Source of the DNA: Nitrosomonadales bacterium
GTDB lineage: Bacteria > Pseudomonadota > Gammaproteobacteria > Burkholderiales > SG8-39
Direction: 5' to 3'
DNA length: 64,000 bases
Assembly: GCA_036676355.1 (NCBI GenBank)
Contig: JAKFDA010000078.1
Span: forward strand, 199-64,198
Shown piece by piece: positions 7,958 through 48,238 of this stretch. The position numbers and the translations under genes are program-made. Every line of letters begins with the position of its first letter. Within the stretch, counting starts at the first letter, position 1. The notes beneath the pieces were generated by a model. That model was given only the letters and a program-made list of their open reading frames with translations, was not told the origin of the DNA and made no database searches.

Positions 7958-7961
7958 AACC

Positions 7962-29201: not shown

Positions 29202-29259
29202 GGTGATATTCCGTTCCGCTGGATAGTTTTGAACTGCTTATTCGTTACTTCCCGATTCG

Positions 29260-29292: not shown

Positions 29293-29643
29293 TTAATTTT
29301 TCTTACAGCACAGCTCGCGCAAATGAGCGACAAGCGCGTTGATATCGTCATCGGTGAAGTTGCCGCCCCAGACCGGCATCAGAACCGACTTGTTGATCGC
29401 CTTGCCGCCTTGCTGGATCACCTTGAACAGTTCTGCGTCGGTACGTGCGGACATCTCCTTGGTATCGGTATGATCACGCGGTGCGACCGACATCGAGGCG
29501 GCGTTGACACCCTTGCCGTCGCCGTTCACGCCGTGACATTGGGTGCAATACAGTTTGTACAGTTGATCACCGTGATCAGCGTCGGCAGCATACGACCCGG
29601 CGCTCAGAGCCAGCAGAGAGATGGCGAGGAATAATTTTTTCAT
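29293..29643 (-). CDS. monoheme cytochrome c (NcgC-like)
   Basis: Signal peptide MKKLFLAIS, CTQCH, distal MPVWG; GGAGA RBS. Confidence 0.9.
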   Translation of the reverse strand: MKKLFLAISLLALSAGSYAADADHGDQLYKLYCTQCHGVNGDGKGVNAASMSVAPRDHTDTKEMSARTDAELFKVIQQGGKAINKSVLMPVWGGNFTDDDINALVAHLRELCCKKN

Positions 29644-29645
29644 GG

Positions 29646-30332: not shown

Positions 30333-30361
30333 GGTGTCTCCTTTCTTACGTGCAACATTTA

Positions 30362-30636
30362 TGAAGCTCTGATTAAGGTTGCTTGATCAAAGCGGTCGCT
30401 GGTTCGTTTCGCATAAGCGATTGATTGCCTCGTCCTCGCTCGTACAGCCATGTGCCGGCGCGCCGAGCAGGGGCCCCTTCAGGGGATGCGAGCGCACAGG
30501 CACATGAAGGAACGCGAAATGAACCGGCACATTCACAGCCGCTGCGGGGTCGCATCCATCGGTGAAACGGATGGAACCTGCCCTGCCCTTCGCGGCCCGC
30601 ACTCACGACCATCCTCGGCACTTAATCAGACATTCC
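30362..30636 (-). mobile_element. MITE-like element copy 3 (275 bp)
   Basis: Ends TGAAGCTCTGATTAA and GGAATGTCTGATTAA read inward; core 30428-30612 homologous to copies 1 and 2; target duplication degenerate. Confidence 0.82.
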
Positions 30637-30647
30637 CTATACGGTAA

Positions 30648-31754: not shown

Positions 31755-33291
31755 ATCGAACGCCTTCGTCAACCTCGCCGGAGTGGTCGCGGATCTTTCC
31801 AAAGCCATGGCGCGCGAATTGCGCTACACCCGCCTGCTGGATGCGTTCAAGCGCAGCTTTCCCTGCGATGCCATTGCATTACTGGAGCGTGACGGCGAAT
31901 TGCTGGTTCCGCGTGCGGTGGAGGGTTTAAGCCGCGATACGCTCGGGCGCCGTTTCGTGATCCGTGATCACCCACGTCTCGCGCAGATCGTGCATAGCGC
32001 CGAACCGGTGCGCTTTCCGGCCGACTCCGCGCTGCCCGATCCCTACGATGGTCTGGTTGATGAAGCCGACGACCATCATCTCTATGTACATGACTGCATG
32101 GGCGCGTCGCTCTATATCGACGGACAGCCGTGGGGCGTCGTGACGCTCGACGCACTGACTCCGCAAAGTTTCGACGCCATAGACGCCGATATTTTCCGGG
32201 CGTTTGTTGCGGTTGCCGCCGCCACGGTGCGTGCCGCGGACTGGATTCAGCGACTCGAAGCGCAACTGGAACGGCATCACCGCATTCAGCAGTCCAACGT
32301 GCAGGACGGCTCGGGCGACGAACTGATCGGCCACAGCCTGACCATGCTGCAACTGCAACGCGAGACACAGACGGTCGCCTCCTCCGATCTGCCGGTTTTG
32401 ATTCTTGGCGAGACGGGCGTGGGAAAGGAACTGATTGCGCGCATGATTCACCGCCATTCGGCCCGCGCGCAGGAACCGATGGTGTATATCAATTGCGCCG
32501 CGCTGCCGGAGTCGATTGCCGAGAGCGAGCTGTTCGGCCACATGCGCGGCGCGTTTTCGGGCGCGACCGACGATCGCATGGGCAAGTTCGAACTCGCGCA
32601 CGAAGGCACGCTGTTCCTCGACGAAGTGGGCGAACTGCCGCTCACGGTTCAGGCCAAGCTTCTGCGCGCGCTGCAAAACGGCGAGATTCAGCGCGTCGGG
32701 AGCGACCGGCATCATCGCGTAGACGTGAGGGTGATCGCCGCGACCAACCGCGATCTGAAGCAGGAAGTGGCCACCGGTCGCTTCCGCGCCGATCTCTATC
32801 ATCGGCTGAGCGTCTATCCGCTGATCGTGCCGCCTCTGCGCGAACGCGGCGAGGACGTGCTGCTGCTCGCCGGCTATTTCATCGAACGCAACCAACGCCG
32901 GCTCGGCTTGCGCGGCGCGCGACTCAGCCGCGGCGCGCGTCAATGGCTTGCGAGTTATGCGTGGCCCGGCAACGTGCGGGAACTCGAACACACCTTGTCG
33001 AGGGCGATGATCCGCGCCTTGAGCGTAGCGCCGTCGCGTGACCGCATCCTCGAATTGACCACCCAGCATCTGGGCGCCGACGGTCGAACCAAGCCGATCG
33101 AAACCGTACTCGCCGTCGAGAACGTAGACTGCGATGCGCGTCCGCTCACCGAAGTGATGGAGTACGTCAGGCGCGAAGTCATCCAGGCACGCCTGCAACA
33201 GCACGACGGCAACCGCGCCGCGGCCGCCCGCTCACTCGGCCTCGATCGCGGCAACTTTCATCGACTGCTGAAAAAGATAGGGTTGAACTGA
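31747..33291 (+). CDS. norR: NO-sensing sigma54-dependent activator NorR
   Basis: GAF with [20 protein letters not shown] (iron-ligand positions of NorR); AAA+ [32 protein letters not shown]; C-terminal HTH. Confidence 0.93.
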
Positions 33292-33322
33292 CAGCTCCAG
33301 CGGGCCCCGACGTTTCGCTTAG

Positions 33323-33360
33323 GCAAGCTTTGATTAAGATTGTTCTTAAGCGGACATTCC
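33323..33360. repeat. 38-bp minimal (TIR-only) derivative of the MITE family
   Basis: TTAG|GCAAGCTTTGATTAA-gattgttc-TTAAGCGGACATTCC|TTAA. Confidence 0.65.
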
Positions 33361-33645
33361 TTAATCGAAATCGAAAATGTCGCCGAGGAAACCGCGCTTT
33401 TTCTTTTTGTAACGGCGCTCGCGGTCGTCATAAGGTTCGTAGCCGCGCGGCTGCTGTCTGGACTGCTCTGCGTAAGACGGTGTAACCGGAGCCTGTTGTA
33501 CGGTATCCGGCGCCGCACGGTCGATGATCTTGTCGAGTTCGCCGCGATCCAGCCAGACGCCGCGGCACTGCGGACAGTAATCGATTTCGATTCCCTGACG
33601 TTCGGACATCACCAGGTTCACGCTCTTGCACACGGGACAATCCAT
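33361..33645 (-). CDS. zf-TFIIB-like zinc-ribbon protein
   Basis: CPVC...IEIDYCPQCRGVWLDRGELDKII; KKKKRGFLGDIFD tail; GAGG RBS. Confidence 0.9.
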   Translation of the reverse strand: MDCPVCKSVNLVMSERQGIEIDYCPQCRGVWLDRGELDKIIDRAAPDTVQQAPVTPSYAEQSRQQPRGYEPYDDRERRYKKKKRGFLGDIFDFD

Positions 33646-33734
33646 CGGCTTCCTCATATTTTGGTTGCACATGCCGCACCGCTCGCGGCGTCCGGCATTC
33701 GACCGCCATCGCGCCGATGTGTTCCCCGCTTGCT

Positions 33735-34901
33735 TCAAGCCGCCCTCAAAGCATCGACGATGCGCAAACGCGCCGCGCGCGTGGCCGGCAGGACGCCGCC
33801 GGCAAAGCCCATGACCAGAGCGAAGATGAGCGTTTTTGCAACGATGCCGGGCGTCAGCGCAAAGGAAAAAGCGAGTTCCGAAAACGACTGCCAGTTCATG
33901 GTCGAGATATGCACCAGTTGCATGAACGAGGCGAGCACGACGCCGATCACCCAGCCGACCAGGCCGAGCGCCAGCGATTCGAGCAGGAAGGCGCCGAGTA
34001 TGCCGCGTCGTCGGAATCCGAGCGCACGCAAGGTGCCGATTTCGGCGGTCCGATTCGCCACTGCCGCGTACATCGTAATCATTGCGCCGATCATCGCGCC
34101 GATGGAAAAGATGACCGACAGCGTGACACCGAGATAACTGATGAACGTGGACATCGTTTTGGACTGGTCTTCGTAGAACGTGCGCTCGCGCTTCACCTCC
34201 ACCGGCAGGCGCGGGTCTTTTTCAAGCTCCGTTTTCAAGCGCTCGTAGGCGCCCGCGTCGGCGAGTCGCGCCACAACGGTCGAATAGGACTGACGCCGGA
34301 ACGTCTGCATCAGTTGTTCGGTATCGCCCCATACCTCCGAGTCGAAAGCGGCCCCGCCGGCATCGAACACGCCGACCACGATCCACTCGCGCCCGCCGAA
34401 GCGCAGGCGCTGCCCCAGACCTGCGCCTTCGAATCGTTCCGCCACGCTGCGTCCCACGACGATTTCCGCCGTGCCGAAGCGCAACATGCGACCGTTGACA
34501 ATGCGAACTTGCGGGCGCAACGCAAATCCCGCTTCATCGATGCCGCGCGTGGTGATGTTGGTCAGCACACCCGTACCGCGCTTGGGCAGGGTGATGAGCA
34601 CGACCGTTTCCTTCGACACCAGCGGGCGGCCATCCGGGCCGAGCGCAACGTTGGCGTTGCTTTCGATAATCAAAGCCTGATTACGCTCGATCGAGCTTTG
34701 CACTTCGGTGCCCGCCGAGCGGCGCGTCACGATGACGTTGTCCGGCTGACCGGTCGCCACCAGCGCCGCGCGCAACCCGGCGTCGAGCATGAGCACCGCG
34801 GCGAAGACGAAGACCACCAGCGCCATGCCGCCTGCGGTCAGCGCGGTGGTCAGCTTGCGCGCCCAGAGATTGCGCAGCGAGTAGGAAACCGGAATCGGCA
34901 T
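33735..34901 (-). CDS. MacB/FtsX-family ABC transporter permease (second permease of the operon at 43285-46427)
   Basis: YSLRNLWARKLTTALT, RTAEIGTLRALGF, four TM segments. Confidence 0.9.
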   Translation of the reverse strand: MPIPVSYSLRNLWARKLTTALTAGGMALVVFVFAAVLMLDAGLRAALVATGQPDNVIVTRRSAGTEVQSSIERNQALIIESNANVALGPDGRPLVSKETVVLITLPKRGTGVLTNITTRGIDEAGFALRPQVRIVNGRMLRFGTAEIVVGRSVAERFEGAGLGQRLRFGGREWIVVGVFDAGGAAFDSEVWGDTEQLMQTFRRQSYSTVVARLADAGAYERLKTELEKDPRLPVEVKRERTFYEDQSKTMSTFISYLGVTLSVIFSIGAMIGAMITMYAAVANRTAEIGTLRALGFRRRGILGAFLLESLALGLVGWVIGVVLASFMQLVHISTMNWQSFSELAFSFALTPGIVAKTLIFALVMGFAGGVLPATRAARLRIVDALRAA

Positions 34902-35084
34902 TCGCGTTATCGGATTTTGATTTCGACAAGCATGCCCGAGCACGTGGCAAGCGTCGATGAGTGATTGTTATCGTCACAGCTATCCGCCCGCCTCGCTGTC
35001 TCCGACACACGACACCTTTGGTCTTTACAACGACATGCCACGCTATATAGTTGGCCCACAAGACGCAATGAGAACGGGGAACGA

Positions 35085-35456
35085 GTGCAGCAAACAAAGG
35101 CGTCCAAAATACTGGTGGTCGACGATTGTCATGATTCGGCCGATGGCATGCGCTGGATCCTCAGCACTTATGGTTACGAAGTGGATGTGGCCTACGATGG
35201 CAACGCGGCCCTTGTCAAAGCCCGGGCGCGCATACCCGATATTGTTCTGCTCGACCTTGCCCTACCGGAAATGGACGGCTATCAGGTCGCCGACGCAATG
35301 AGAAGCGAAGCTGGACTCCGCGTGCCGATTTTCGTGGCGGTTACCGGCTACGGGCGCGAGCACGACAAGCGACAAAGCGCCGCAGCGGGCTTCAAACACC
35401 ACCTCACCAAACCGATCGATCCGCTCGCGCTGCTGGAAACGCTCGCCAACGTTTAA
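35085..35456 (+). CDS. single-domain response regulator (receiver only)
   Basis: ILVVDD, LLDLALP, AVTGYG, HLTKP; start uncertain (GTG 35085). Confidence 0.85.
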   Translation: MQQTKASKILVVDDCHDSADGMRWILSTYGYEVDVAYDGNAALVKARARIPDIVLLDLALPEMDGYQVADAMRSEAGLRVPIFVAVTGYGREHDKRQSAAAGFKHHLTKPIDPLALLETLANV

Positions 35457-35498
35457 TCAAGAAAGCGCCTGGCGAGGCGCCCCCGGCGCGCGCGCGGC

Positions 35499-37427
35499 TC
35501 ACAGCAAAGGCACGCCCGCAACCTTTTCATCGCGCTGCTTCGCGCGGCTGAAGCGCACGCTGTTGCGCATCATGTCGGCCATCTCAACCCGACGGTTCGT
35601 ATAGAACTCGTCCGCATCGTCCACCGGCGCATCCGTGCCCGTGTGAATGGAAACATCGAACACGTTGCCGCTTACTCGCGGGAACTTGGCCTTGTACGCG
35701 TCGTCGCGGTATCCCAGATCGGTCCACGAGGCGAATACGGTGTACTTGCGCACCTGCTCCGCATCGAGCAGATCGTAGCCGAGCGAATAGTCGCCCGCCG
35801 GATTGCGCACGCCGAGCAGCGGCATGAGCGTCGCCGGAATATCGAGATGGCTGGTCATGCGGTCGATTTGCGCCGGTGCAACGCCCGGCACATGCAGCAC
35901 CAGCGGGACGCGCACCTGCTCCTCGGTGAAATCCGAGTTATGGCCCCAACGCCCTTTTTCCATGAACTCTTCGCCGTGGTCGCCGGTGATGATCACGATG
36001 GTGTTGTCGAGCAGTTTCTCGCGCTTGAGGTAGTCGAAGACGCGCGCGAACTGGCTGTCGAGATGATTGCAGGCATTGATGTAACGATTCCTGATCAGAT
36101 CGATGTCGCGCTCGAGATTCATGGTGGCGTAGTTCAGATCATCGAGGTATGGCTTTCGGATCGCCGACTCCGGCGGGAACTCGTAACGCGCATGCGGCGA
36201 TTCGAAGAACATGAAGCGCATGAACGGCTTGTTCGGATCGCGCCGATCGAGCGACGCCAGCAACTTAGCCACGTTGCGCTCGTCGCGCCGCCAGGCCGGG
36301 CCGTTCGGATCCTCGTGCAACGCATCGGTTGATATTTGCGAAAAGATCGTCCGGTCGAATTCCGGATAGGTGAACTTCGCGCTGGTATACGCCTCGATCT
36401 GATAGCCCTGCTGCTGCAGCACGTCGATCAGCGCGGGGCCGCGTCGCTGCGCCAGCATCGGGAACCAGTAATTGCCGTACAGCCCGAAGAACATGCTGAA
36501 GAGGCCCATGCGCGTACCGTTGCCGCCGCTGTAGTGACGTTGGTAATGCACGTTTTTCGCGGCAAAGGCGGCGGTGTGCGGCATGATCTGCGGGTCGAGC
36601 ATGTCCCAGCGCCACGACTCGGCCACGAGCCAGACGACGTTGAGCGGTTTAGCCGGCGCCTCGACACGCAGCGGCACGGCCGGATAATTCAATTGCATCG
36701 TCTCGCCGGATGCCACACGCACTGCCTGCCGCTGCGGCGCTTCATAGCCGAGCTTCTTCGCCAGCTTGCGGAATGTGGTCGGCTGATAAAGCGGAAACGC
36801 TTTCGACGCGAGCACGATCGGCGCGTCATGCTTCATGAACGCCACGCCGAATGCGCCGTGTTGCACCAGCGCGACGATGAGGAGCGACGCGAGCGCCGTC
36901 CGCGCAAACGCCCGGCGTCCGCCGAAGCGCTCCCAACGCGGCTGCACCAGGCGTCGCGCGCCGGCAGCCAGTCCGGCCTGCAGCAGGACGATGGCGACTG
37001 CCAACGCAATGGCCATATAAAGCGCCGACCCGCTGCTGCCCATCGATTCCAGTCCGCCCGGCGTGGTCAACAGATTCCAGACGAAGCCATTAAGGTGGAA
37101 GCCGTACATCCGATAGATCTGGCCGTCCACAAACAACGCCATGCACAACAGACTGAACAGCGCCACTGCGACAGCGAGGCTGGTCACGACGGCGCGTGCC
37201 GGCGTCATAACGCGTTTGAGGATTGTCGCGGCGATTCGCGCCACTGCCCAAACCACCAACGTGTAGAACGCACCATAGACAACGAAGGCGGCGTGGCTGA
37301 AAAGCGCCGCCTGGGGCGTGCTCTGCGGCACCGCGCCGAGGTGAACCGACAGCGCGAGCAGCACGAGCGGGTAGTTAAGTGCGGCGTAAAGGCCCAGCGT
37401 CGCGCGCAGACCGGTGTCGTGTTTCAT
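35499..37427 (-). CDS. membrane-anchored sulfatase-fold protein, DUF3413/YejM(PbgA)-like
   Basis: About five N-terminal TM helices; AESWRWD, HYSGGNGTRMGLFSMFFGL, ESPH, ITGDHGEEF, GHNS, SHLDIPAT. Confidence 0.85.
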   Translation of the reverse strand: MKHDTGLRATLGLYAALNYPLVLLALSVHLGAVPQSTPQAALFSHAAFVVYGAFYTLVVWAVARIAATILKRVMTPARAVVTSLAVAVALFSLLCMALFVDGQIYRMYGFHLNGFVWNLLTTPGGLESMGSSGSALYMAIALAVAIVLLQAGLAAGARRLVQPRWERFGGRRAFARTALASLLIVALVQHGAFGVAFMKHDAPIVLASKAFPLYQPTTFRKLAKKLGYEAPQRQAVRVASGETMQLNYPAVPLRVEAPAKPLNVVWLVAESWRWDMLDPQIMPHTAAFAAKNVHYQRHYSGGNGTRMGLFSMFFGLYGNYWFPMLAQRRGPALIDVLQQQGYQIEAYTSAKFTYPEFDRTIFSQISTDALHEDPNGPAWRRDERNVAKLLASLDRRDPNKPFMRFMFFESPHARYEFPPESAIRKPYLDDLNYATMNLERDIDLIRNRYINACNHLDSQFARVFDYLKREKLLDNTIVIITGDHGEEFMEKGRWGHNSDFTEEQVRVPLVLHVPGVAPAQIDRMTSHLDIPATLMPLLGVRNPAGDYSLGYDLLDAEQVRKYTVFASWTDLGYRDDAYKAKFPRVSGNVFDVSIHTGTDAPVDDADEFYTNRRVEMADMMRNSVRFSRAKQRDEKVAGVPLL

Positions 37428-37503
37428 GTATTTCCCGAGGAGATTGGGTCGCGTGCATGCGGTTATCGTGCCTACGATCGCACTGGGCGCCGTACCGGCC
37501 CGA

Positions 37504-37535
37504 CGCCGGTCGCCGGTCGCCGGTCGCCGGTCGCC
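37504..37535. repeat. tandem heptamer (CGCCGGT)x4
   Basis: cgccggt repeated four times plus cgcc, in the SDR-sulfatase spacer. Confidence 0.85.
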
Positions 37536-37597
37536 ATTTAGATGACTTTTCCCTGATGAGCTGCTTAAGGACTGAGACGACGCGCGCGATTGCGGAA

Positions 37598-38428
37598 TCA
37601 CGCCAGATCCTGCGGCGCCGGATGCACCGCCGCAGTTCGCTCGACATTACCCTTGCTCTCCAGCGCGGCGCGCGCCGCACGCGCCTGAGAGCGCAACAGG
37701 CGGTCGAACAGGCGCGGCAACATGCCGTTGAGACGGGCGAACGACGACTCGACGAAGCCGAACGTCCGCTCGGACGCGTCTTCTTCGATCGCCCGCACGA
37801 TATGCATCGCGACGACTGCCGGATCGTCGAACACCATTCCCGTTCGTTCGGCATAGCGATGCACCGCGACGCCGTTCATCGGCGTACGCGTGGCGCGCGG
37901 CGCGACATACGTCACGCCGACACCGCGGTCGGCAAGCTCGCGCCGCAAGGCTTCCGAAAATCCGCGCAGGCCGAACTTGCTCGCCGCGTACGTCGTGAAA
38001 TAGGGAAAGCCCATCGCACCGAATACCGAGCCGACGTTGACGATACGGGCGCCCGCAGTCAGATGCGGCAGGACGGCGGCGATCAACGCCATCGGCGCAA
38101 TGAGATTCACCGTGATCAACCGGTGTATCGACGACGCTGTCTCGTTCTCGAAGCAGCCGAATTCCGATACACCGGCGGCATTGACCAGCAGATCCAGACC
38201 GCCAAGCCGTTGCAACGCGTTCGCCACGAGCTCGGCGTGGCCGCCGTTCGACGCGAGATCGAACACCATCGCATCGCCATGCACGCGCGCGGCAAGCCAT
38301 GCCAGGCGCTCGCGATCGCGGCCGACGAGCACCAATCGCGCGCCTTTGGCCGCCAGTTGTTCGGCGAGCGCACGACCGATGCCACCGGTTGCGCCGCTAA
38401 GCAGCACTCTCGCACCGTGAATCTTCAT
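37598..38428 (-). CDS. short-chain dehydrogenase/reductase
   Basis: SGATGGIG, NAAG, NVGS, YAASK; ATGA overlap with the upstream gene. Confidence 0.93.
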   Translation of the reverse strand: MKIHGARVLLSGATGGIGRALAEQLAAKGARLVLVGRDRERLAWLAARVHGDAMVFDLASNGGHAELVANALQRLGGLDLLVNAAGVSEFGCFENETASSIHRLITVNLIAPMALIAAVLPHLTAGARIVNVGSVFGAMGFPYFTTYAASKFGLRGFSEALRRELADRGVGVTYVAPRATRTPMNGVAVHRYAERTGMVFDDPAVVAMHIVRAIEEDASERTFGFVESSFARLNGMLPRLFDRLLRSQARAARAALESKGNVERTAAVHPAPQDLA

Positions 38429-39102
38429 GCCGCCTCCCTCGCGCACGGCACGCGCTTCGCATCGAGCCCGCGAAAGATGTCGCCGTAGAGCTTGTAGAAC
38501 ATACGTGCGCCATGGGCGATGGCCCGGCGGTCACCCGGTTCGTCGAGCTTATTCACCAGGCCGGCGAAATACTTGATGTGGGCCTGATCGAGGCTTCCGT
38601 GCGAACTGAGATAACTGAATGCGTTTGCGGGCAGGTCAAGCGCCGCGCGCAAAGCTTCGGCGGCCCTGCTCGCCACATTGACGCTCGTCCCCTCGAGCAC
38701 CAACACCATGCCGAGAAACGCCACCGGGTTGCCGCGCGCGATCGTGTCATATGCGTAAGCCACCATGAGTTCGACCGGTGCGGACGGCGTGCCTCGTCGC
38801 ACTTGCTCGGCATCGACGCCGCATGTGCGCAGATCGTTGAGTATCCATTCCTGGTGTCCGCGTTCCTCGTCGATATATTCGGACATCGCCTGTCGCAGCC
38901 ATTCCAGTCGCTCGGGCAGGCGTGCGCCGCATGCCATCAACAACGGCAGCGTGTGTTTGACATGGTGGTAGGCCTCGGTCAGAAACGCGGTGTATTCGAC
39001 CAGCCCGAGACGACCGGCCGCGCCGTCGCGCAGAAATGGGATAGCGAGCAACGCGTCGCGCTCGCGTTGCGTCGCCGCGAGCAGTTCGTCGTGATAAGTC
39101 AT
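38425..39102 (-). CDS. heme-oxygenase-like (TenA/PqqC-like) iron-containing redox enzyme
   Basis: EAYHHVKHT, EERGHQEWILND, VLEGTS, SHGSLDQAH: His/Glu pattern of HO-like diiron proteins. Confidence 0.85.
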   Translation of the reverse strand: MTYHDELLAATQRERDALLAIPFLRDGAAGRLGLVEYTAFLTEAYHHVKHTLPLLMACGARLPERLEWLRQAMSEYIDEERGHQEWILNDLRTCGVDAEQVRRGTPSAPVELMVAYAYDTIARGNPVAFLGMVLVLEGTSVNVASRAAEALRAALDLPANAFSYLSSHGSLDQAHIKYFAGLVNKLDEPGDRRAIAHGARMFYKLYGDIFRGLDAKRVPCAREAA

Positions 39103-40532
39103 GCGTTCTCCGTTTTGTAGAGTTGGTCGATGCGGTCGCCGTAGCGCGTAAGCAGCGCCTCGCGCCGCAATCTGCCATTCGAAGTCGCCTCTCCATTGCC
39201 AAGCGAGAAGGCGGCATCGGCTGCAATCCAGTGGCGCACTTGCGCGTAATCCGGCAGCGCGCGGTTCGCCGCTGCGATCGCGACGGCGAGGTGCCGCGAA
39301 TCACGCGGGACGATCACGGCCGATAGCCACGGTTTGCCCTCGCCGAAGACGGCGGCCTGCGCAATGGCGCGTTGCGCGGTCAATTCGCGCTCGACCCACT
39401 CCGGCGCGACATTGCGGCCGAAGGCAGTCACCAGCATGTTGCGGCGCCGCCCCGTGAGGTGCAGGAAACCGGCCTCGTCGATATAACCGAGGTCGCCGGT
39501 CGGCCACACTTCGCCCGCCGCTTCTCGATCGCCTACATAACCGAGCGTCGTGGCGCCCGCGACACACAGTTCGCCATCGCGCGCGATTTCGAGCGCGGCA
39601 TGCGGCAGCACACGACCGACGCTACCGTCGCGACAGGCCCGCGGCGTGTTGAGCGCCACCACTGAAGCGCACTCGGTCAAGCCATAGCCTTCGTAGACAG
39701 GTAGACCGCAAGCGCGCGCGCGCCGCAATAGCGCTACCGACAACGGCGCGCCGCCCACCGCGATGAAGCGCAAGTCGGCAACAGATTCGTGGCCGTCTTC
39801 CAGCGCCTCGACCAGACCGACGAGCATTTGCGGCACGAGAATGGCGGTCGTGGCTCGATAACGACGCAGCGCTTCGAGCAGCACCACGCCGTCGAAGCCG
39901 CCCATGCCGCGCAATCCAATTCGTTCGGAGGGCAGGACGACAGTGCGTGCGCCGGCAATGCGTTGCGCATACAGGCCGCCGATGTTTTCCAGCAACGTTG
40001 CGAGCGGCAACGCGCACAGATGCACATCGTCGCGTTGAAGTTCGCAGGCTGCAGCCAGCGACGCCGCCACCATTTCCATCGCGCGCGCGCTGAGACAAAC
40101 GCCCTTCGGCTCGCCGGTGGTGCCGGATGTATAAGTAATTTTCGCCGTACCGGGCGGCAGCGCACGCGGCGTCGACACGATGCGCGTTGCACACAATGTG
40201 TGACCGGCGATTTCAATGGATTCGTGGTGAATCCTGTGCAACGGCGGATGCTCGACGGCATCGCGTCGATCGCTTAAAACCCAATCCGCGCCGCTGTCGT
40301 GCAATGCATGCCGACGTTGCGCGGGGGTGAAGAAACGCGGCAGGGGCACGATCGGTATTGCGCTCTCCAGCGCGGCGAAATCGGCGATCGCCCAGGCCGG
40401 GCTGTTATCCATATCGAGCGCGAGCACGCGCGGCCGCATGCGCTCGTACGCCCGGTGCATTCGCTCGATCTCGCCTGCTGCTTGCTCCGCTGTAAGCGCA
40501 TCATGCGGCCCGATCAGCGCGAGACCCTTCAT
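39099..40532 (-). CDS. AMP-binding (adenylate-forming) enzyme
   Basis: YTSGTTGEPKG, YEGYGLTE, TGDLG, GRRRN; ATGA overlaps on both sides. Confidence 0.92.
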   Translation of the reverse strand: MKGLALIGPHDALTAEQAAGEIERMHRAYERMRPRVLALDMDNSPAWAIADFAALESAIPIVPLPRFFTPAQRRHALHDSGADWVLSDRRDAVEHPPLHRIHHESIEIAGHTLCATRIVSTPRALPPGTAKITYTSGTTGEPKGVCLSARAMEMVAASLAAACELQRDDVHLCALPLATLLENIGGLYAQRIAGARTVVLPSERIGLRGMGGFDGVVLLEALRRYRATTAILVPQMLVGLVEALEDGHESVADLRFIAVGGAPLSVALLRRARACGLPVYEGYGLTECASVVALNTPRACRDGSVGRVLPHAALEIARDGELCVAGATTLGYVGDREAAGEVWPTGDLGYIDEAGFLHLTGRRRNMLVTAFGRNVAPEWVERELTAQRAIAQAAVFGEGKPWLSAVIVPRDSRHLAVAIAAANRALPDYAQVRHWIAADAAFSLGNGEATSNGRLRREALLTRYGDRIDQLYKTENA

Positions 40533-41146
40533 GCCGCCTTCTCGCAGCACCTGTTCAAGGCAATCCGTGATTCACGTATCGATACGGCACACACGCGCGG
40601 ACCGCTGCGGTAGTAGTCACCCCAATCGTGGCGCGCCTCTTCAGGCAGGGCTTCGAGTGATGCCGGGCCGAGATCGACCAGCGGAATACCGAGCCGACGG
40701 AACGAATTGCGTAACGCCGCCACCCCGGTGAATACCACCCACTCGAACGGCGCGGACGACAGGTAGTGCGTCAGGGCGGCGATCAACTCTCGCGCAGTGG
40801 CGGGAGATGCCGCCGCGAGATTACCGACTTCGACAACGCACGCACGGCTAACCCTGCCGCCCATCGCGCTCGACAGTGCCGCTTCGACAGGCTGCTCGAG
40901 ATAGGACTCGAGGAACAACCGTCGCTCCTGCTCGGCGCCACGCAAACCGCAAGCGATGATCAGCCGACCGTGGCCATCGCGCGCCCCCAGCAGCGTGGGC
41001 ATGAACTGCCGAATGCGCGCTTGATGTGCGGCGCGAAAATGTGCCGCGATAAACGCTTCGGCCTCTTTACGACTCGTACCGATTTGCGCAACGAGACAAC
41101 GTCTCGGCACCGCTTCGCGCTCGGCGCGCGCCTTCCCGTATTCCAT
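40529..41146 (-). CDS. 'thermostable hemolysin' (delta-VPH-like) family protein
   Basis: FMPTLL, LFLESYLEQPVE, VVEVGNLAA, WVVFT, LRNSFRRLG, WGDYY motifs. Confidence 0.85.
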   Translation of the reverse strand: MEYGKARAEREAVPRRCLVAQIGTSRKEAEAFIAAHFRAAHQARIRQFMPTLLGARDGHGRLIIACGLRGAEQERRLFLESYLEQPVEAALSSAMGGRVSRACVVEVGNLAAASPATARELIAALTHYLSSAPFEWVVFTGVAALRNSFRRLGIPLVDLGPASLEALPEEARHDWGDYYRSGPRVCAVSIRESRIALNRCCEKAA

Positions 41147-41214
41147 GCAGCCTCCTGCTATCCCGTGGCAGAGGCATGTTAAGAATCAGGAGCGCGAAGA
41201 AATGTCGTCGAAGT

Positions 41215-41230
41215 GTGAAGTTTCCGTGAA
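41215..41230 (-). promoter_or_regulatory. candidate OmpR/ColR-type direct repeat upstream of the hemolysin-like gene
   Basis: Minus strand TTCAC-ggaaac-TTCAC (11-bp period) in an AT-richer spacer. Confidence 0.5.
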
Positions 41231-41282
41231 TATGAAAAACGTACGGGACTACAGCATCGGGATCCCGGGCGAGGCGCGCCGC

Positions 41283-42557
41283 TCAGGCCGACTCGGATGG
41301 TCCGAAATCGACGGTGAACGTCGTGCCTTCGCCAGGCTGGCTGGCAACCCCGATGCTCCAGCCGAAGCGAGTGCAAAGTCGCCTGACAATCGCCAGTCCG
41401 ATGCCACTGCCTTCACGCCGGGCATTACGACCACGAAAGGAACGCTCGAAGATATGCGGCACGTCCTCGGCGGCGATACCGATCCCGGAATCGTTGATGC
41501 TCAGCGCGTGTCCGTCGTAGCGCACCGTGATGCGGCCGTGATCGGTATAGACGAGCGCGTTCTTCAGCAGGTTGCCGACGAGCAATGCCAGCGCGGTACG
41601 ATGCACCGACAACACCGCGCCCTCGGGAATATCGATCTCCAGTCCGATCCCTTTGGCCTCCAACGCCGAATCGAATTGCGCTGCAATCTCGGACACCATT
41701 TCGCGCAAGGCAACCGATTCGCGCGCGGCCATCGGCGCTTCGCGCGCCAGCAGCAGCAGAGCCTCGACCACTTCGGTCATGCGATCGGTGCCTTCGAGTA
41801 CACGTTGAACACGCGAACGCGATTTTTCGTTCAACGACGCATCATTCAGCAACAGTTCGCAGCTCGATTTGATAATCGTCAGCGGCGTACGCAGTTCATG
41901 GCTGACGTTGGCGGTGAACTCCTTTTCCCGGCTCAGCAATTCGGTGACGCGATCGGCATACTCGTCCAGCGCCTGGGCGAGCGTGACCACCTCCGCGTCG
42001 CGATAATCCGGCGCCAGCACGGGCTGCGGCGCCGCCGGGTCGAGGCTCGCGACACGCCGGGACAGATCGGTCACCTGCCGCACCAGCCGGCCCGCCACCC
42101 AGACGCCAGCCCACACCAGCACCGCAATGGATACGACAATACCCAGCAACATGAAGATGCGGAATTCGTTGACGCGGTCTTCGTGCCGGGTGGCGTCGTA
42201 AAGCAGGTAGTAGACGCCGTCCTGCGTCGGCTGCACATCGACGTGGAGTTCGCGCTCGCCGATGTAGAACTCATGCACCCCGGAATCGAGACCGCGCAGA
42301 TACTCGGGTAGCGCGGCGGCGTCTTCCGGCGTGCGCACGATATAGCGAATCAAACCGCCCGGCACATCGCCCGGCGCGCGACTGAGCACGCGCTCGGCTT
42401 CGTCGAGCAGAATGCGATCGATGAAATTTTCTTCCTGATATTCGACGATGAACAGCACCGCGATCGTCTGCAGCACCAGCAGGAATGCGCCGACCACGAT
42501 GACACCGATCGCCACCCGACTACGCAGGCCGATGCGGGCGGAATTGACGTTCGCCAC
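41283..42557 (-). CDS. ColS-like sensor histidine kinase
   Basis: Two TM segments, HAMP, SHELRTPL, NLLKNA, DSGIG, GIGLAIV. Confidence 0.9.
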   Translation of the reverse strand: MANVNSARIGLRSRVAIGVIVVGAFLLVLQTIAVLFIVEYQEENFIDRILLDEAERVLSRAPGDVPGGLIRYIVRTPEDAAALPEYLRGLDSGVHEFYIGERELHVDVQPTQDGVYYLLYDATRHEDRVNEFRIFMLLGIVVSIAVLVWAGVWVAGRLVRQVTDLSRRVASLDPAAPQPVLAPDYRDAEVVTLAQALDEYADRVTELLSREKEFTANVSHELRTPLTIIKSSCELLLNDASLNEKSRSRVQRVLEGTDRMTEVVEALLLLAREAPMAARESVALREMVSEIAAQFDSALEAKGIGLEIDIPEGAVLSVHRTALALLVGNLLKNALVYTDHGRITVRYDGHALSINDSGIGIAAEDVPHIFERSFRGRNARREGSGIGLAIVRRLCTRFGWSIGVASQPGEGTTFTVDFGPSESA

Positions 42558-42558
42558 G

Positions 42559-43251
42559 TCAGCGCCGCTCGACCGACGCCAGGCGGTAACCTACGCCGTG
42601 CATGTTCTCGATCGGATCGGCGGCGCCGGCCGCCTGAAACGCGCGGCGCAGGACGTACATGTGGCTACGCAGGGTTTCGCTGGAAGGCAGCCGTTCGCCC
42701 CATACCGCCTGCTCGAGATCGGCGCGGGTATAGACGCGCGCAGGCTGGGTCAGCATGAACTCGAGCAGGCGCAACGGCTTGGGCGGCAGGCGCACCGGCG
42801 TACCGTTCACCGTCACCGACAGCGTGACGGGATCGAACACGATCGCGCCATGCCGCAACGCTGTGAGTGCGGCGCGACCGACCCGGCGCTTGTGCAGCGC
42901 CTGCAGACGCGCTTCGACTTCGGCGAGCGCGAAGGGCTTGGCAAGGTAATCGTCCGCGCCGCTATCGAAGCCTTCCAGCTTGTCTTCCAGCGTATCGCGC
43001 GCCGTCAGCATCAACACCGGCGTATCGCGCTGCGCATCCTCGCGCAGTCGGCGACATAGCATCACGCCGTCGATTCCCGGCAGATTGAGGTCGAGCACGA
43101 TGGCGTCGAAGTCCTGCGTCACGGCCAGATGCAATCCCGTCACGCCGTCGAACGCCGCATCGACCGTATGACCATGCGACTCGAGGTAATCGCATAGATT
43201 GGTGGCAATGGGGCTTTCGTCTTCGATGATGAGGATACGCACGGTTACCAC
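42559..43251 (-). CDS. ColR-like OmpR-family response regulator
   Basis: DGVTGLHLA, LDLNLPGIDG, RLREDA.RDTPVLMLTARD, LRSHMYVLR resemble Pseudomonas ColR; start 43251 or 43242. Confidence 0.9.
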   Translation of the reverse strand: MVTVRILIIEDESPIATNLCDYLESHGHTVDAAFDGVTGLHLAVTQDFDAIVLDLNLPGIDGVMLCRRLREDAQRDTPVLMLTARDTLEDKLEGFDSGADDYLAKPFALAEVEARLQALHKRRVGRAALTALRHGAIVFDPVTLSVTVNGTPVRLPPKPLRLLEFMLTQPARVYTRADLEQAVWGERLPSSETLRSHMYVLRRAFQAAGAADPIENMHGVGYRLASVERR

Positions 43252-43284
43252 GGCAAAATTCGGTAACGCGCATTCTAGCCGCGC

Positions 43285-44448
43285 TCAACCGACGAATCGC
43301 AACCCGTCGACAATCTTCACTCGGGCGGCGCGCCGCATCGGCAGCAGCGCCGCCGCCAAGCCGACGATCAGCGCGCAGCCGGCCTGCAGCGCAACCGTCG
43401 ACCGGCTGATTTCGAATATCGGAAACAGCGTCCCCATCTGTGCGGCAAACCAGTGTCCGATCGGGAAGGTCAGCGCGATGCCGAGCACGGCACCGGCCAG
43501 GGCGATGGCCAGCGATTCGCCGAGAATCAGGCCGCCGACGAAAGACGGATGGAATCCCAGCGCCTTCAAAGTGGCGTATTCAGGCATGCGTTCGCGCGCC
43601 GTCATCGACATCGTATTCGCCATGACCGCGAGAATGATGGCGATGACGACAAAGGAAACGAAACGCACGGCCACCACAATCGCCTCGGTCTGTTTGGCGA
43701 AGCCGATCTGGAACGCGCGCTCCGTCTCGGTGAGCGTTTCGGCGGCAGAGTTGCGAAACAGCTCATCGATGTTGCGGCCGATCTCCGCAGCGCGTCCGAT
43801 GTCGCCGATCGAGACGACGAATACACCGACCTTGTCGGCACGCTGCGGCGCGCGCTTCTTGAGCGTCTCGTTGAGATATTCGTAGTGGAAGAACATCAGC
43901 GAGGTGTCCGTCGACGGCTGCGCGCCGTCGTAGATCGCCCGCACGGTGAATTCCCAGTTGCCGGGGAAAATGTCGCCCTGCAGCGGAAGCGTGTCGCCGA
44001 TGCGAAAACCGTGGTTGACGGCGAGCTTGCGGCCGATCACCGCGCCCTTGCGATCGCGCATGAAGGCGCGAAACTCCTCGTCTTCGAGCAGGTACTCTGG
44101 ATACATCGCGAAATACGGTTCGGGGTCGACCGCGAACCGCGGAAAGAAATTTTCCATGCTTGTATCGCGATAAACGCCGCCGAACCAGTTGGCTGCGGCG
44201 ACGCGTTCAACGCCGCCGACGGCGCGAATCTTTTCGCGATAGTTGATCGGCATCGGGAAAATCAACGATACCGCGTTGCGCGTCACCAGGCGATTGGCCG
44301 CCGCGGCGTTCGCGCCCGCGTACCACGCATCCACAATGGTCTGCAGCAGGCCGAAGGACAGAATCGCGACCACCAGCCCGAGCACCGTCAGCCCGCTGCG
44401 CAGCTTGTGCCGCAGACCGTTACGCAGAATGAGTTTGAAAAAGTGCAC
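43285..44448 (-). CDS. MacB/FtsX-family ABC transporter permease
   Basis: RNGLRHKLRSGLT, NWFGG, RERMPEYATLKALGF. Confidence 0.9.
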   Translation of the reverse strand: MHFFKLILRNGLRHKLRSGLTVLGLVVAILSFGLLQTIVDAWYAGANAAAANRLVTRNAVSLIFPMPINYREKIRAVGGVERVAAANWFGGVYRDTSMENFFPRFAVDPEPYFAMYPEYLLEDEEFRAFMRDRKGAVIGRKLAVNHGFRIGDTLPLQGDIFPGNWEFTVRAIYDGAQPSTDTSLMFFHYEYLNETLKKRAPQRADKVGVFVVSIGDIGRAAEIGRNIDELFRNSAAETLTETERAFQIGFAKQTEAIVVAVRFVSFVVIAIILAVMANTMSMTARERMPEYATLKALGFHPSFVGGLILGESLAIALAGAVLGIALTFPIGHWFAAQMGTLFPIFEISRSTVALQAGCALIVGLAAALLPMRRAARVKIVDGLRFVG

Positions 44449-44457
44449 GGCGCGAGA

Positions 44458-45216
44458 TCAGGCGTGACGATTCGCGCGTACCGAACGCTCCGCCACGCCC
44501 TCTGCGGTGGAAAGCTCGCCCTTTTCCAGATACATGATGGCGTGCGCCCGATCGGCCGCGCGCTTGTCATGGGTGACCATGATGATGGTCTTGCCGAGTT
44601 CCGCGTTCAGTCGATCGAGCAGGCCGAGAATTTCTTCGGCCGATACGCGATCCAGATCTCCGGTCGGTTCGTCGGCGACTAATAAGGTGGGATCGGAAAT
44701 CACCGCGCGCGCGATCGCCACCCGCTGCTGCTGTCCGCCCGACAATTCGGACGGCAGGTGATCCATGCGATCGGCCAGGCTGACCAGATCGAGCGCCATT
44801 TCCACGCGCTCCCGACGTTCGCGGCGCGACAGCGAAGTCAACGTCAGCGGCAATTCGACGTTCTCGAACGCGGTGAGCACCGGCATCAGGTTATAGAACT
44901 GGAAAATGAAACCGACGTTCGCCGCGCGCCAGTCGGCCAGTTCGGCCTCGGTCAATTGCGTGATGTCGATGCCGTCGATGATCACTTCGCCCGAGTCCGG
45001 TTTGTCGATCCCGGCAATCATGTTGAGCAGCGTGCTCTTGCCCGAACCGGAAGGCCCCATCAGGCCGAGAAAATCGCCGGCCCGGATATCGAGGTTGATA
45101 TCGGTCAGCACCGATACCGTCTGTCCGCCGCGTCGATACGATTTGACCAGGCTGCGAATCCTGATCAGCGGCGCGCTCGCTTCATTGCCGGTCGGCGCAT
45201 TCACGACATCATTCAC
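44458..45216 (-). CDS. ABC transporter ATP-binding protein (LolD/MacB type)
   Basis: GPSGSGKS, LSGGQQQRVAIARA, ADEPTG, VTHD. Confidence 0.95.
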   Translation of the reverse strand: MNDVVNAPTGNEASAPLIRIRSLVKSYRRGGQTVSVLTDINLDIRAGDFLGLMGPSGSGKSTLLNMIAGIDKPDSGEVIIDGIDITQLTEAELADWRAANVGFIFQFYNLMPVLTAFENVELPLTLTSLSRRERRERVEMALDLVSLADRMDHLPSELSGGQQQRVAIARAVISDPTLLVADEPTGDLDRVSAEEILGLLDRLNAELGKTIIMVTHDKRAADRAHAIMYLEKGELSTAEGVAERSVRANRHA

Positions 45217-46427
45217 GGCTTCTGCTCGATCGTGACCTTGCGGCCGTCAAGGCTCGCATCGAGCGGTTTCAGCACCACGCGATCGCCGGGCTGCACCCCC
45301 CGCACTTCGAGCAATTCGCCGAGCGTCGCGCCGGTCTGCACCGGCACCCGCTCGGCGCGACCATCCTTGATGCGTAACACCGACGCGGAGGCATCGTCAC
45401 GCAATACCGCCTCGGCCTGCACCGCCGTGACCGGTTTGCGCTCCTCGGGCTCGAGCGCGCGCTCAAGAAATGCGACCTTGGTGCTCATATCGGGCAGCAC
45501 GCGCTCATTGCGTTCGTTGAAACGAATCTTCACCAGCACCGTCGCCTTGGCGCGATCGACCGTCGGCACAATGCGATTGACCTGCCCGCCGAAACGCTCG
45601 TCCGGCAGCGCGTCGAGTTGGATCTCCACCGGCTGGCCGACGCTGATCTTGCTCAGCGAAGACTCCGCCACATCCGCTTCGACTTCGAGCGTGCTCATGT
45701 CGGCCATGGTGACGACCGCGCCCTTGGTATCGAGCGCACTCGAGAAGGGCGTGATGTTGTCGCCCACATTGGCATTCTTGGTCAGCACGACGCCGTCGAA
45801 CGGCGCCCGGATGAGCGTCTGATCGAAGCCGACCTCGGCGGCTTCGAGATCGGCGCGCGCGACCGCCAGCGAGGCCTGCCGGCTCGCCAGCGCCGCCTTG
45901 GCGATTTCCATGCGCGCACGCGCGGCGTCGTGCGCCGCTTCGCTGATATAGCGCTTGCCGATCAATTCCTCGGAGCGCTTGAACGCGCGCAGGGCATCGC
46001 GTAAATCCGCGCTCGCCTGCTCCACATTCGCCTGCGCAACCTTGACGCCGGCCTGTGCCTGCTCGCGCGTCGCCGCGACATCGCGATTTTCCAGTCGCGC
46101 GATGATCTCGCCCTCTTTCACCTTGCTGCCTTCGGCGACGCCGAGCCACTCCAGACGCCCGGTCGCTTTCGACGCGATCGAGGCTTTGCGCTGCGCGACG
46201 ACGTAACCCGTCGCGTTCAGCACGGTGATCGCCTGTGCCGGATAAGCGGTCGTCACGCTGACCGCCTCCACGGTCACCGCGCCGACATAACGCTGCGCCA
46301 GAATCGCCGCGGCAATGAGCAACACCGCGGCGGCGGCAATCCACCAGCGCCAGCGTGTACGTTTCGGCGTGCCTCTGCCGGCCGCGCCGCGATCGATACT
46401 GAGTCGGGAAAGTTCGGATGCGCTCAC
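45213..46427 (-). CDS. efflux periplasmic adaptor (membrane fusion protein)
   Basis: N-terminal TM, ATGYVVA, lipoyl halves (EGSKVKEG, IRAPFDG), coiled coil; probable GTG start 46427. Confidence 0.9.
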   Translation of the reverse strand: MSASELSRLSIDRGAAGRGTPKRTRWRWWIAAAAVLLIAAAILAQRYVGAVTVEAVSVTTAYPAQAITVLNATGYVVAQRKASIASKATGRLEWLGVAEGSKVKEGEIIARLENRDVAATREQAQAGVKVAQANVEQASADLRDALRAFKRSEELIGKRYISEAAHDAARARMEIAKAALASRQASLAVARADLEAAEVGFDQTLIRAPFDGVVLTKNANVGDNITPFSSALDTKGAVVTMADMSTLEVEADVAESSLSKISVGQPVEIQLDALPDERFGGQVNRIVPTVDRAKATVLVKIRFNERNERVLPDMSTKVAFLERALEPEERKPVTAVQAEAVLRDDASASVLRIKDGRAERVPVQTGATLGELLEVRGVQPGDRVVLKPLDASLDGRKVTIEQKP

Positions 46428-46554
46428 AAGATGGGGATGTCGGAAAGAAAGTAGTGAGCCCTGCGTGCGACATGCAGGGCTGGGCATTATATCTGCGCCG
46501 CGACGGCGCCCCGACCGGATATGGACGCAGATGCGGCAGGTAATTCGCGCCGTA

Positions 46555-47139
46555 TCAGCGCAATCGAAAACGCACCGGCAACAGGATGGTGCGACCGGCC
46601 ACGGTCGCCGATAAGGTGCCGAGCTCACGCACCGCGCGCAACGCCGCAGCATCCAGAATCTCGTGACCGGAACTGCTTGCGACGGCGGCACTCCGCACAT
46701 GTCCGGCGGCGTCGATTTCGAGCAGCACGATCACCTCGCCCTCCAGCCCCTGCTCCAACGCTTCGGGCGGATAGAGCACCACCTCGGCAATCCGCTGTTT
46801 GGCATCGTCGACGGTCGGGCGTTGTCGCTCCACCGGCCGTGCGGCCGCCCTTGCCGACCTGGCTTCATCGGGTTTCGCTCGGCGCGACGGCGGCGCCGCC
46901 ACTTCCTCCGGCGGCAAGGTGTTCTTGATCAGGCCGTCGTCGGGCGTTGCCGTGACATCCTGCGCGCCCGGCAACAGGCGCGCGTTGAGCGGGATCGACT
47001 CGACCGGCGCGCGCATATCGAATGACGGCAGGCGCGACGCAACGCCGAGCACGCTCGCATGCAGAAATACCGACGCAACGACGGCGAGACCGACTCTCCA
47101 ATTCGCCTGCCACGGCGGCCTTTGACTTTTGCTGTCCAC
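46555..47139 (-). CDS. TonB-like energy transducer
   Basis: TM with SxxxH (SVFLH), Pro/Ala linker, YPPEA...SSGHEILDAAAL...PVRF; start uncertain. Confidence 0.85.
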   Translation of the reverse strand: MDSKSQRPPWQANWRVGLAVVASVFLHASVLGVASRLPSFDMRAPVESIPLNARLLPGAQDVTATPDDGLIKNTLPPEEVAAPPSRRAKPDEARSARAAARPVERQRPTVDDAKQRIAEVVLYPPEALEQGLEGEVIVLLEIDAAGHVRSAAVASSSGHEILDAAALRAVRELGTLSATVAGRTILLPVRFRLR

Positions 47140-47184
47140 GCCCGGAATATGGGCCGCTCGTTTGCACCTTGGCAAGTTCTCTTC

Positions 47185-48132: not shown

Positions 48133-48238
48133 GCAAGCCTGCGGGCAACTGATGTCCTTTGTGCCAATGCAGGCCTCGCCTTTGCTCCATCAACAAGGAG
48201 TCTTGTTGCGCTTGTGCAACGTGCACGTATGAATAACA

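Follow-up and report, generated by a model that had tools for sequence, protein, structure and literature searches.

A 64-kb stretch of DNA from a Nitrosomonadales bacterium (contig JAKFDA010000078.1; hereafter the window) contains a four-gene cassette encoding a member of the “thermostable hemolysin” family PF12261 (Thl), an ANL-superfamily adenylate-forming ligase, a heme-oxygenase-like (HO-like) enzyme of family PF14518 (HDO), and a classical short-chain dehydrogenase/reductase (SDR). Although its layout is unusual, the cassette is otherwise an ordinary representative of a family of loci that is widespread and has apparently not been studied. On balance, this conserved and carrier-independent cassette probably makes a small molecule, likely an N-acylated amine such as a lipoamino-acid-like or aryl-amide amphiphile, which acts outside the cytoplasm. 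The fold of Thl, gene fusions, the lack of a carrier, a Streptomyces gene context, a conserved gene for a presumably periplasmic tetratricopeptide repeat (TPR) protein, extracytoplasmic sensors, and a MacAB-like pump together point to a cytoplasmic route to an envelope-acting acylated molecule. A preliminary description of this DNA had proposed a small-molecule or envelope-modification pathway. Our results support a small-molecule pathway under two-component control, whereas the proposed hand-off of its product to a sulfatase-fold enzyme is at best lineage-specific, as such a gene was found at only 5 of 81 loci.

Thl matched the PF12261 model (T_hemolysin) with 196 bits (cutoff 27) over model positions 6–172 of 174, and PF12261 as a whole is represented by 2244 clusters at 50% identity (E ≤ 1e-3). 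The AlphaFold2 (AF2) model of Thl, calculated with 18 relatives as input, was confident (pLDDT 91.2, pTM 0.86) and has the GNAT fold. At E ≤ 0.001, a Foldseek search with this model gave 42 matches in the PDB; the ones listed were N-acyl homoserine lactone (AHL) synthases, FeeM, and other GNAT acyltransferases, and no pore-forming toxin was among them. The top matches were TofI, FeeM, MesI, LasI, and BjaI (E = 5.5e-7 to 2e-5), with TM scores of 0.46–0.69 against the AHL synthase and FeeM structures. FeeM chains ranked third and fifth to eighth (E = 1.6e-6, TM 0.59–0.69). In the preliminary description, the VVEVGNL motif of Thl had been likened to LuxI/FeeM-type N-acyltransferases, and a comparison with GNAT folds had been set beforehand as a check. 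The motif is present, its residues E106, G108, N109, and L110 are invariant in 18/18 aligned relatives, and the guess proved correct at the level of the fold: the confident model matched GNAT acyltransferases including AHL synthases and FeeM, and the outcome of a pore-forming toxin was not seen. The earlier observation that the “hemolysin” lacks a signal peptide also held, with none seen at the N-terminus as judged by eye. A protein language-model (Atlas) search with PF12261 clusters excluded led to FeeM, Autoind_synth, and Acetyltransf_5 clusters with scores of 0.88–0.92 (feature score of the Autoind_synth lead, 0.90), which are leads only. Thl is thus predicted to have the LuxI/FeeM acyltransferase fold and is best read as an acyl-transfer enzyme, not as a pore former. 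A predicted complex of the ligase with Thl (score 0.00, mark 0.32) gave no evidence either way.

The ligase is a short ANL enzyme that matched PF00501 (159.5 bits) and PF23562 and has the conserved P-loop/core motif T-S-G-T-T-G-x-P-K-G; it is most closely, though weakly, related to MenE-type and fatty-acid CoA ligases. HDO matched PF14518 with 118.4 bits (cutoff 28.9), and its residues E80, H83, E137, H168, D172, and H175 are invariant in 20/20 sequences (HDO and 19 cassette homologues). The resulting E-x2-H / E / H-x3-D-x2-H pattern is what we take to be the dimetal ligand set of UndA and CADD, so that, by analogy, HDO appears to retain the full six-residue set of three histidines and three carboxylates. 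In a Foldseek comparison, the AF2 model of HDO (pLDDT 92.3) resembled 3dde (TM 0.83), CADD (TM 0.82), and UndA (TM 0.78), the closest structure being that of the uncharacterized protein Sden_3740 (3dde; 23% identity). Family match, fold, and predicted ligand set agree with the earlier designation as an HO-like diiron enzyme, and the score against the CADD family model TIGR04305 was 29.6 bits, below its cutoff of 200. The SDR is the sole cassette protein to score above an NCBIfam equivalog cutoff (NF006565, 282.5 bits; cutoff 238), and this model denotes no specific function.

Related loci were collected by a scan of one genome per species, in which 136 pattern matches included 93 that encode a relative; the best 80 loci were kept and, together with the window, form a set of 81. 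Flanking families were counted by phmmer with Pfam-verified seeds on all open reading frames (ORFs) within about 10–12 kb of Thl. Of the 72 loci with ≥3.6 kb of downstream sequence, 67 have the order Thl–ligase–HDO–SDR on one strand; a further eight loci were too short. Of the five exceptions, four lacked an SDR match covering ≥50% of the query and one lacked HDO. Overlaps of 4 nt were present between ligase and HDO in 24 of 67 separate pairs and between HDO and SDR in 34 of 70, and in 3 of 70 loci, which belong to different clades, one ORF encodes both ligase and HDO. In a set of 5.8 billion proteins, 613 proteins of 393–1253 residues matched the HDO part, and among the matches listed (120 of 613) 114 carry both PF00501 and PF14518. 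Two of these 114, both of 943 residues (P0309 and P0333), comprise an N-terminal PF12261 domain, AMP-binding, AMP-binding_C_3, and PF14518, with the gene order kept. The four genes have been maintained as a single evolutionary unit, with a constant order and frequent fusions. Cassettes were found in Pseudomonas, Massilia, Vibrio, Variovorax, and many uncultured Proteobacteria, and a matching five-gene arrangement is annotated on a Vibrio parahaemolyticus plasmid and a Variovorax replicon.

No carrier domain was detected in the ligase–HDO or triple fusions among the matches listed, nor was a carrier-protein ORF found among the overlapping genes of the window, which bears out the preliminary description in this respect. 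As the cassette and the fusions both lack a carrier domain, the pathway appears to be independent of carrier proteins. On a Streptomyces plasmid (L083, positions 7863–11090), a Thl–ligase pair followed by a TauD/TfdA dioxygenase lies within a type II polyketide synthase cluster together with cyclases, MFS exporters, and a deoxysugar gene. This context argues for a biosynthetic role.

In the window, the genes of interest are all located on the minus strand in an uninterrupted run from position 46700 down to 35499 (Table 1). All genes named in the preliminary description were found on this strand, and the ATGA stop/start overlaps at the three junctions from Thl through SDR (40529–40532, 39099–39102, and 38425–38428) are exactly where it had placed them. 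The ABC ATPase and adaptor genes also share 4 nt, and the histidine kinase has a periplasmic stretch of ~95 residues between two hydrophobic segments, as judged by eye from the sequence.

Table 1 Positions of the cassette genes and of neighboring features in the window.
Feature	Position	Strand	Basis or remark
Periplasmic adaptor (membrane-fusion) gene, MacAB-like exporter	45213..46700	-	Pfam HlyD_D23 and HlyD_3; TIGR01730 173.6 bits (cutoff 94.9)
ABC ATPase, LolD/MacB-like, same exporter	44458..45216	-	Pfam ABC_tran; top NCBIfam matches LolD and MacB below cutoffs
FtsX/MacB-type permease	43285..44448	-	Pfam FtsX and MacB_PCD
OmpR/PhoB-family response regulator	42559..43251	-	Pfam Response_reg and Trans_reg_C; no NCBIfam equivalog cutoff reached
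Sensor histidine kinase	41283..42557	-	Pfam HisKA and HATPase_c
Direct repeat TTCAC-N6-TTCAC, probable response-regulator box	41215..41230	-	In the 136-nt spacer between kinase stop and Thl start
Thl, PF12261 “thermostable hemolysin” family, predicted GNAT-fold LuxI/FeeM-like acyltransferase	40529..41146	-	Pfam, AF2, Foldseek
ANL-superfamily adenylate-forming ligase	39099..40532	-	AMP-binding and AMP-binding_C_3
HDO, HO-like enzyme, PF14518	38425..39102	-	Pfam, AF2, Foldseek
Classical SDR	37598..38428	-	Pfam adh_short; NF006565
Probable non-coding SDR/sulfatase spacer, 170 nt	37428..37597	-	Unconserved, indels relative to L001
Multi-transmembrane DUF3413 and sulfatase/alkaline-phosphatase-fold membrane protein	35499..37427	-	Pfam Sulfatase and DUF3413

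A transmembrane signaling module adjoins the cassette in 73 of the 81 loci. Class A comprises the window, L001, L002, L011, and L041, five loci in which a regulator pair precedes the cassette on its own strand, class B the 22 loci with a regulator pair downstream, after the TPR gene, class C the 12 loci with a divergent kinase/regulator pair, and class D the 34 loci with a divergent ECF sigma factor, FecR anti-sigma factor, and TonB-dependent receptor. The eight unclassed loci are seven cut contigs and one full-length locus (L079). On a phylogenetic tree of HDO, the class D loci essentially form a single clade. Class B, with members in four or more clades that lie on both sides of the midpoint, looks like the commonest and perhaps the ancestral layout. 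The V. parahaemolyticus genes VP1729–VP1735 have the class B layout according to PMC10469919.

The repeat TTCAC-N6-TTCAC occurs once in the 64 kb, ~70 nt before the Thl start. With 0.09 matches expected and at least one match in 9 of 100 shuffled sequences, this single match is weak evidence on chance grounds alone. The preliminary description had reported the repeat upstream of the regulator pair. It does exist, but it is located downstream of the pair, in the spacer between kinase and Thl, and therefore belongs to the operon promoter. Each of the five class A loci has the repeat in front of Thl, with GGAAAC, AAAAAC, CGAATC, AAAAAC, and GAAATC as N6; the L011 copy contains a single mismatch, and in L041 there are four in-phase half-sites. 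Outside class A it was found only once, as a match with one mismatch in L077. The class B box is a different direct repeat, TT(C/A)A(G/T)N-N5-TT(C/A)A(G/T)N, which was present in 15 of 22 class B loci, including those of Pseudomonas, Massilia, Rhodocyclaceae, and others, and in none of the class A (0/5), class C (0/12), or class D (0/34) loci. We take this TTAAG-type repeat to be PmrA/QseB-like. That the type of box changes with the type of regulator is good comparative evidence that the neighboring regulator drives the cassette promoter, and on these sequence grounds the adjacent two-component system very probably controls the cassette.

The half-sites and the 11-bp phasing of the TTCAC repeat match footprinted ColR sites of Pseudomonas putida, for example those of PP3766 and PP0035, as given in PMC2689224. 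Compared to the ColR consensus stated there, (T/C)(T/C)NA(C/G)NN(T/C)TTTTT(C/G)AC, the window site has matching half-sites and lacks the central T-tract, and by our own count it agrees at 9 of 13 specified positions. The conservation of the repeat lends support to the regulatory link between the two-component pair and the cassette that had been suggested earlier. A promoter/terminator scan returned two promoter-like and four terminator-like sites, no more than in shuffled sequences, and no RNA family was found by an Rfam scan of positions 33000–48500 (E ≤ 0.1).

A gene for a TPR protein of ~215 residues follows the SDR gene in 68 of the 81 loci. The one such protein whose N-terminus was read, from a Pseudomonas locus (L016), starts with a signal-peptide-like segment as judged by eye. 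Genes for the MacAB-like pump are present upstream, at the same place, in the window, L001, and L002 only, and the pump is a candidate exporter of the product. Just upstream of the pump genes, the window contains a TonB_C-domain ORF (46555–48132, minus strand), whose long predicted N-terminus overlaps a plus-strand ankyrin-repeat gene (47059–48132, E = 1.9e-41).

The longest ORF of the sulfatase-fold gene starts with a GTG at 37601 and overlaps the SDR stop as GTGA. When compared to L001, a relative with ~90% identity at the protein level, the 170 nt that separate the SDR stop from the ATG at 37427 are unconserved and contain indels, while both flanks are conserved. This stretch includes a perfect 7-mer tandem repeat (CGCCGGT, 4.6 copies, positions 37504–37535; TRF, period 7), which L001 does not have; an unrelated 68-bp insertion is found there instead. 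Because the stretch is unconserved and broken by indels, we place the start of the gene at the ATG and treat the preceding 170 nt as a spacer. Judged from this comparison, the gene most likely starts at 37427, and the GTG ORF is probably over-extended. As stated in the preliminary description, a sulfatase-fold gene follows the operon, but the gene is not translationally coupled to it. The protein shares the DUF3413 and Sulfatase architecture of YejM, but it scored only 200.4 bits against the YejM model NF038282 (cutoff 825) and is not a YejM orthologue.

Contrary to the expectation that this gene is a conserved partner, co-conservation largely failed in the neighborhood analysis. Only 5 of the 81 loci, in three clades, have a sulfatase-fold homologue within ~10 kb of the cassette. 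It occupies the same position in the window and in its near-twin L001, lies at the same place by the cassette in L069 and L073 (both Rhodocyclaceae), and is found at +5.7 kb in L035. In L069 (positions 3848–9745 of a Rhodocyclaceae metagenome-assembled genome), two sulfatase-fold membrane proteins, one of them with DUF3413, and a fused MsbA-type ABC exporter are encoded divergently from Thl. No sulfatase-fold gene is located nearby in L002 or L041, the other full-length class A loci, and L041 has a TPR gene instead. In L002, which after L001 is the nearest class A relative, ligase and HDO are fused and the SDR is reduced to a fragment of 146 residues (13126–13566), which is directly followed by a homologue of the window ORF 33717–34964; this layout indicates that the SDR–sulfatase–receiver segment varies between the closest class A relatives. 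By a rough estimate, the occurrence in three clades is somewhat more than expected by chance. From its distribution, the sulfatase-fold gene appears to be a sporadic, lineage-specific accessory and not a core partner.

These data bear directly on an alternative in which the cassette builds a lipid-like unit for the periplasmic sulfatase-fold (LtaS/EptA/YejM-like) enzyme, resulting in envelope remodeling under ColRS-type control. The sulfatase-fold gene of the window and L001 does come directly after the SDR gene, in the same orientation and without an intervening predicted terminator, further such neighbors, with an MsbA-like exporter in L069, extend to three separate clades of the HDO tree, and fold relatives of Thl such as FeeM make lipoamino acids. 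In addition, the promoter boxes resemble those of ColR and presumably of PmrA-type regulators, systems that control envelope genes. However, the scarcity of such neighbors, their absence from L002 despite its same layout, the unconserved and uncoupled spacer, and the distance from YejM all speak against this alternative, and the conserved fifth gene elsewhere encodes a TPR protein, not a transferase. We consider it rather unlikely.

A somewhat lower probability is assigned to a metallophore (siderophore-like) product, which would be exported, re-imported by a TonB-dependent receptor, and sensed at the surface or by a metal-sensing two-component system. The ECF sigma/FecR/TonB-receptor trio, divergent from the cassette at 34 of 81 loci, fits this picture, as do the TonB_C-domain gene and the MacAB-like pump upstream in the window, a VIT-family gene beside the Variovorax locus, a PF00756 esterase and an OPT transporter near some loci, and the response of ColRS to metals stated in PMC4074579. 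But the receptor trio, being essentially confined to one clade, represents one evolutionary event, none of the usual siderophore enzymes is present, and the enzymes encoded do not reveal any chelating group. Moreover, the best Fur-box match upstream of Thl reached at most 12/19 in all 78 loci tested, which was no better than in control windows. The class D clade, the TonB_C gene, and the Variovorax VIT gene may be taken as hints at metals, and the sporadic sulfatase-fold and lipid-exporter neighbors hint at the envelope.

It is improbable that the cassette is catabolic or detoxifying, with an imported or membrane-damaging compound being sensed outside, activated by the ligase, oxidized and reduced, and finally N-acylated or neutralized. 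Sets of ligase, oxygenase, and dehydrogenase are generally typical of CoA-dependent degradation, substrate-inducible TonB receptors and two-component systems are common, and the regulators of the cassette vary by clade while its enzymes remain constant. On the other hand, enzymes of the LuxI/FeeM fold are familiar as synthases, the Streptomyces Thl–ligase pair lies in a polyketide cluster, the ligase–HDO and triple fusions resemble an assembly enzyme, and no further catabolic genes are conserved nearby. It is hardly credible that the PF12261 protein itself is a hemolytic toxin, as annotated: the family is named after the Vibrio delta-VPH gene, whose product is listed as a thermostable hemolysin “with unclear role in pathogenicity” in PMC5592226, but the confident GNAT-fold model, the lack of a pore-former among the matches listed, the lack of a visible signal peptide, and the invariable position of Thl within an enzyme operon, sometimes fused to ligase and oxidase, all oppose it.

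Several observations weigh against an N-acylated, exported product of the cassette. The proposed transfer of an acyl group to an amine is deduced from fold similarity at only 9–17% identity (TM 0.5–0.66). None of the 18 Thl members matched the Pfam models of LuxI (Autoind_synth, PF00765), FeeM (PF21926, PF13444), or Acetyltransf_5, even at E ≤ 10, so that membership in the LuxI or FeeM families at the sequence level did not hold up. At the same threshold, no Pfam family other than PF12261 gave a credible match to these 18 members, and a PDB sequence search with the Thl family profile gave no match at E ≤ 10. ANL enzymes usually have a catalytic A10 lysine and a G-R-x-x-D hinge. In the cassette ligase, the usual A10 lysine site is R454 (G453-R454), an arginine that is invariant in 16/16 aligned cassette ligases, and the hinge motif is G-R-K-K-N; judging by this substitution, the chemistry of the ligase may be atypical. 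The near-universal TPR gene is absent from the cassette studied here, with no TPR homologue in the whole window, and the pump is common to only three loci. The counts of signaling modules are not independent, as the HDO tree of 70 rows needs only seven changes of module type, and the case for control by the adjacent regulators comes from conserved boxes. The Fur-box result also counts here, as it weakens a classical role as iron siderophore.

Even with these points, a cytoplasmic route to an acylated small molecule remains the reading that we favor. In this route, the ligase would activate a carboxylic acid to an acyl-AMP or acyl-CoA, and the dimetal enzyme, physically coupled to the ligase, would either make the acid or oxidize the activated acyl group. 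The SDR would adjust a hydroxyl or keto group, and Thl would move the acyl group onto an amine. In the window, the periplasm-sensing kinase would phosphorylate the OmpR-type regulator, which would then bind TTCAC-N6-TTCAC and switch the operon on. The product might be exported by the MacAB-like pump encoded just upstream, and the sulfatase-fold enzyme, as a lineage-specific add-on, may decorate or use it. The conserved parts are the four genes and the regulator box, with the sulfatase-fold gene and the pump being lineage-specific.

The Vibrio gene was reportedly named after heat-stable hemolysis by an Escherichia coli clone in the original cloning report. We infer from this that the name “thermostable hemolysin” probably reflects a heat-stable, membrane-active product and not a protein toxin. 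More tentatively, PF12261 cassettes might represent a widespread, so far unrecognized class of self-produced extracellular cues, in which a LuxI-fold synthase and a fused ligase–dimetal oxidase yield an exported amphiphilic amide. This amide would be bound in the periplasm, by a TPR protein in loci that encode one, and then detected by a dedicated two-component system or a TonB-receptor/anti-sigma/ECF pathway, which would feed back on the operon. If so, the cassettes would amount to autoinduction circuits of a quorum-sensing-like or metallophore-like kind, based on new chemistry, and the decades-old “thermostable hemolysin” of vibrios would be a small-molecule activity. In this widespread cassette, an ANL ligase is directly paired with an HO-like dimetal enzyme, and the constant association with envelope-spanning sensors makes the product a candidate for a new signaling or metal-related molecule. 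In Vibrio surveys, PF12261 proteins are labeled hemolysins and scored as virulence markers. This annotation would be misleading if the family consists of acyltransferases.

No biochemical or genetic characterization of the cassette was found in the literature, subscription journals not being covered, and within this scope the earlier statement that no product has been characterized agrees with our search. PMC10469919 connects VP1735, the thermostable hemolysin VP1729, and the iron-containing redox enzyme VP1731 by a predicted network link only. A preprint places VP1726–VP1729 in ProU1, with VP1729 as the last gene. The locus tag VP1729 is thus used in conflict, for a thermostable hemolysin in PMC10469919 and for ProU1 in the preprint. 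A term search of a review on HDO enzymes (PMC13108848) found no mention of hemolysin, acyltransferase, or siderophore.

Elsewhere in the window, a 2856-residue ORF (52927–61497) contains GH94 supersandwich and catalytic domains and a glucoamylase-like domain and is presumably a cyclic beta-1,2-glucan synthase; it is preceded by genes for a CHASE2 hybrid kinase (48239–50725) and a response regulator (51144–51902). The region 25445–31592 encodes a TonB-dependent receptor, two proteins with multicopper-oxidase domains, and a cytochrome c, and may be a copper or metal oxidation cluster.

Among known systems, Pseudomonas ColRS likewise consists of an OmpR-family regulator and a membrane kinase and uses the same TTCAC half-sites and spacing. 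It differs from the system in the window in the T-tract, which is absent from the window site, and in NCBIfam, which contains no model for ColR or ColS, the regulator found here matched only generic OmpR-family models, below their cutoffs. With YejM/PbgA/LapC and LtaS/EptA/OpgB, the membrane protein encoded after the cassette has in common a multi-transmembrane DUF3413 and periplasmic sulfatase/alkaline-phosphatase architecture, but with 200 bits it stays far from the YejM cutoff of 825. HDO shares its fold and ligand pattern with the HO-like dimetal oxidases CADD, UndA, BesC, SznF, and MboA. Unlike CADD, it falls short of TIGR04305 and is often fused to the C-terminus of an ANL ligase; we know of no characterized HO-like dimetal oxidase with such a fusion.

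The LuxI-type AHL synthases TofI, LasI, EsaI, BjaI, MesI, and RpaI have a GNAT-derived fold in common with Thl (E = 5.5e-7 to 1.2e-4, TM 0.46–0.66), and in both groups an acidic residue is conserved within a strand that carries the motif E-x-G-N-L. CoA-dependent LuxI members use acyl-CoA provided by a separate ligase, which parallels the adjacent ligase of the cassette. In contrast to LuxI, the Thl members do not match Autoind_synth, identities are only 9–16%, and no LuxR-type receptor is encoded nearby; Thl is accompanied by an HO-like dimetal enzyme and an SDR, together with a TPR protein and either a two-component or an ECF system. FeeM and related N-acyl amino acid synthases match Thl in fold, and FeeM-family clusters appeared in the Atlas search, but there is no membership at the sequence level. 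FeeM uses an acyl carrier protein, whereas the cassette has no carrier gene or domain even in its triple fusions. Like the set of activities predicted for the cassette, the fee cluster brings together fatty-acid activation, N-acyl synthesis, and oxidative tailoring, and its products are membrane-active amphiphiles.

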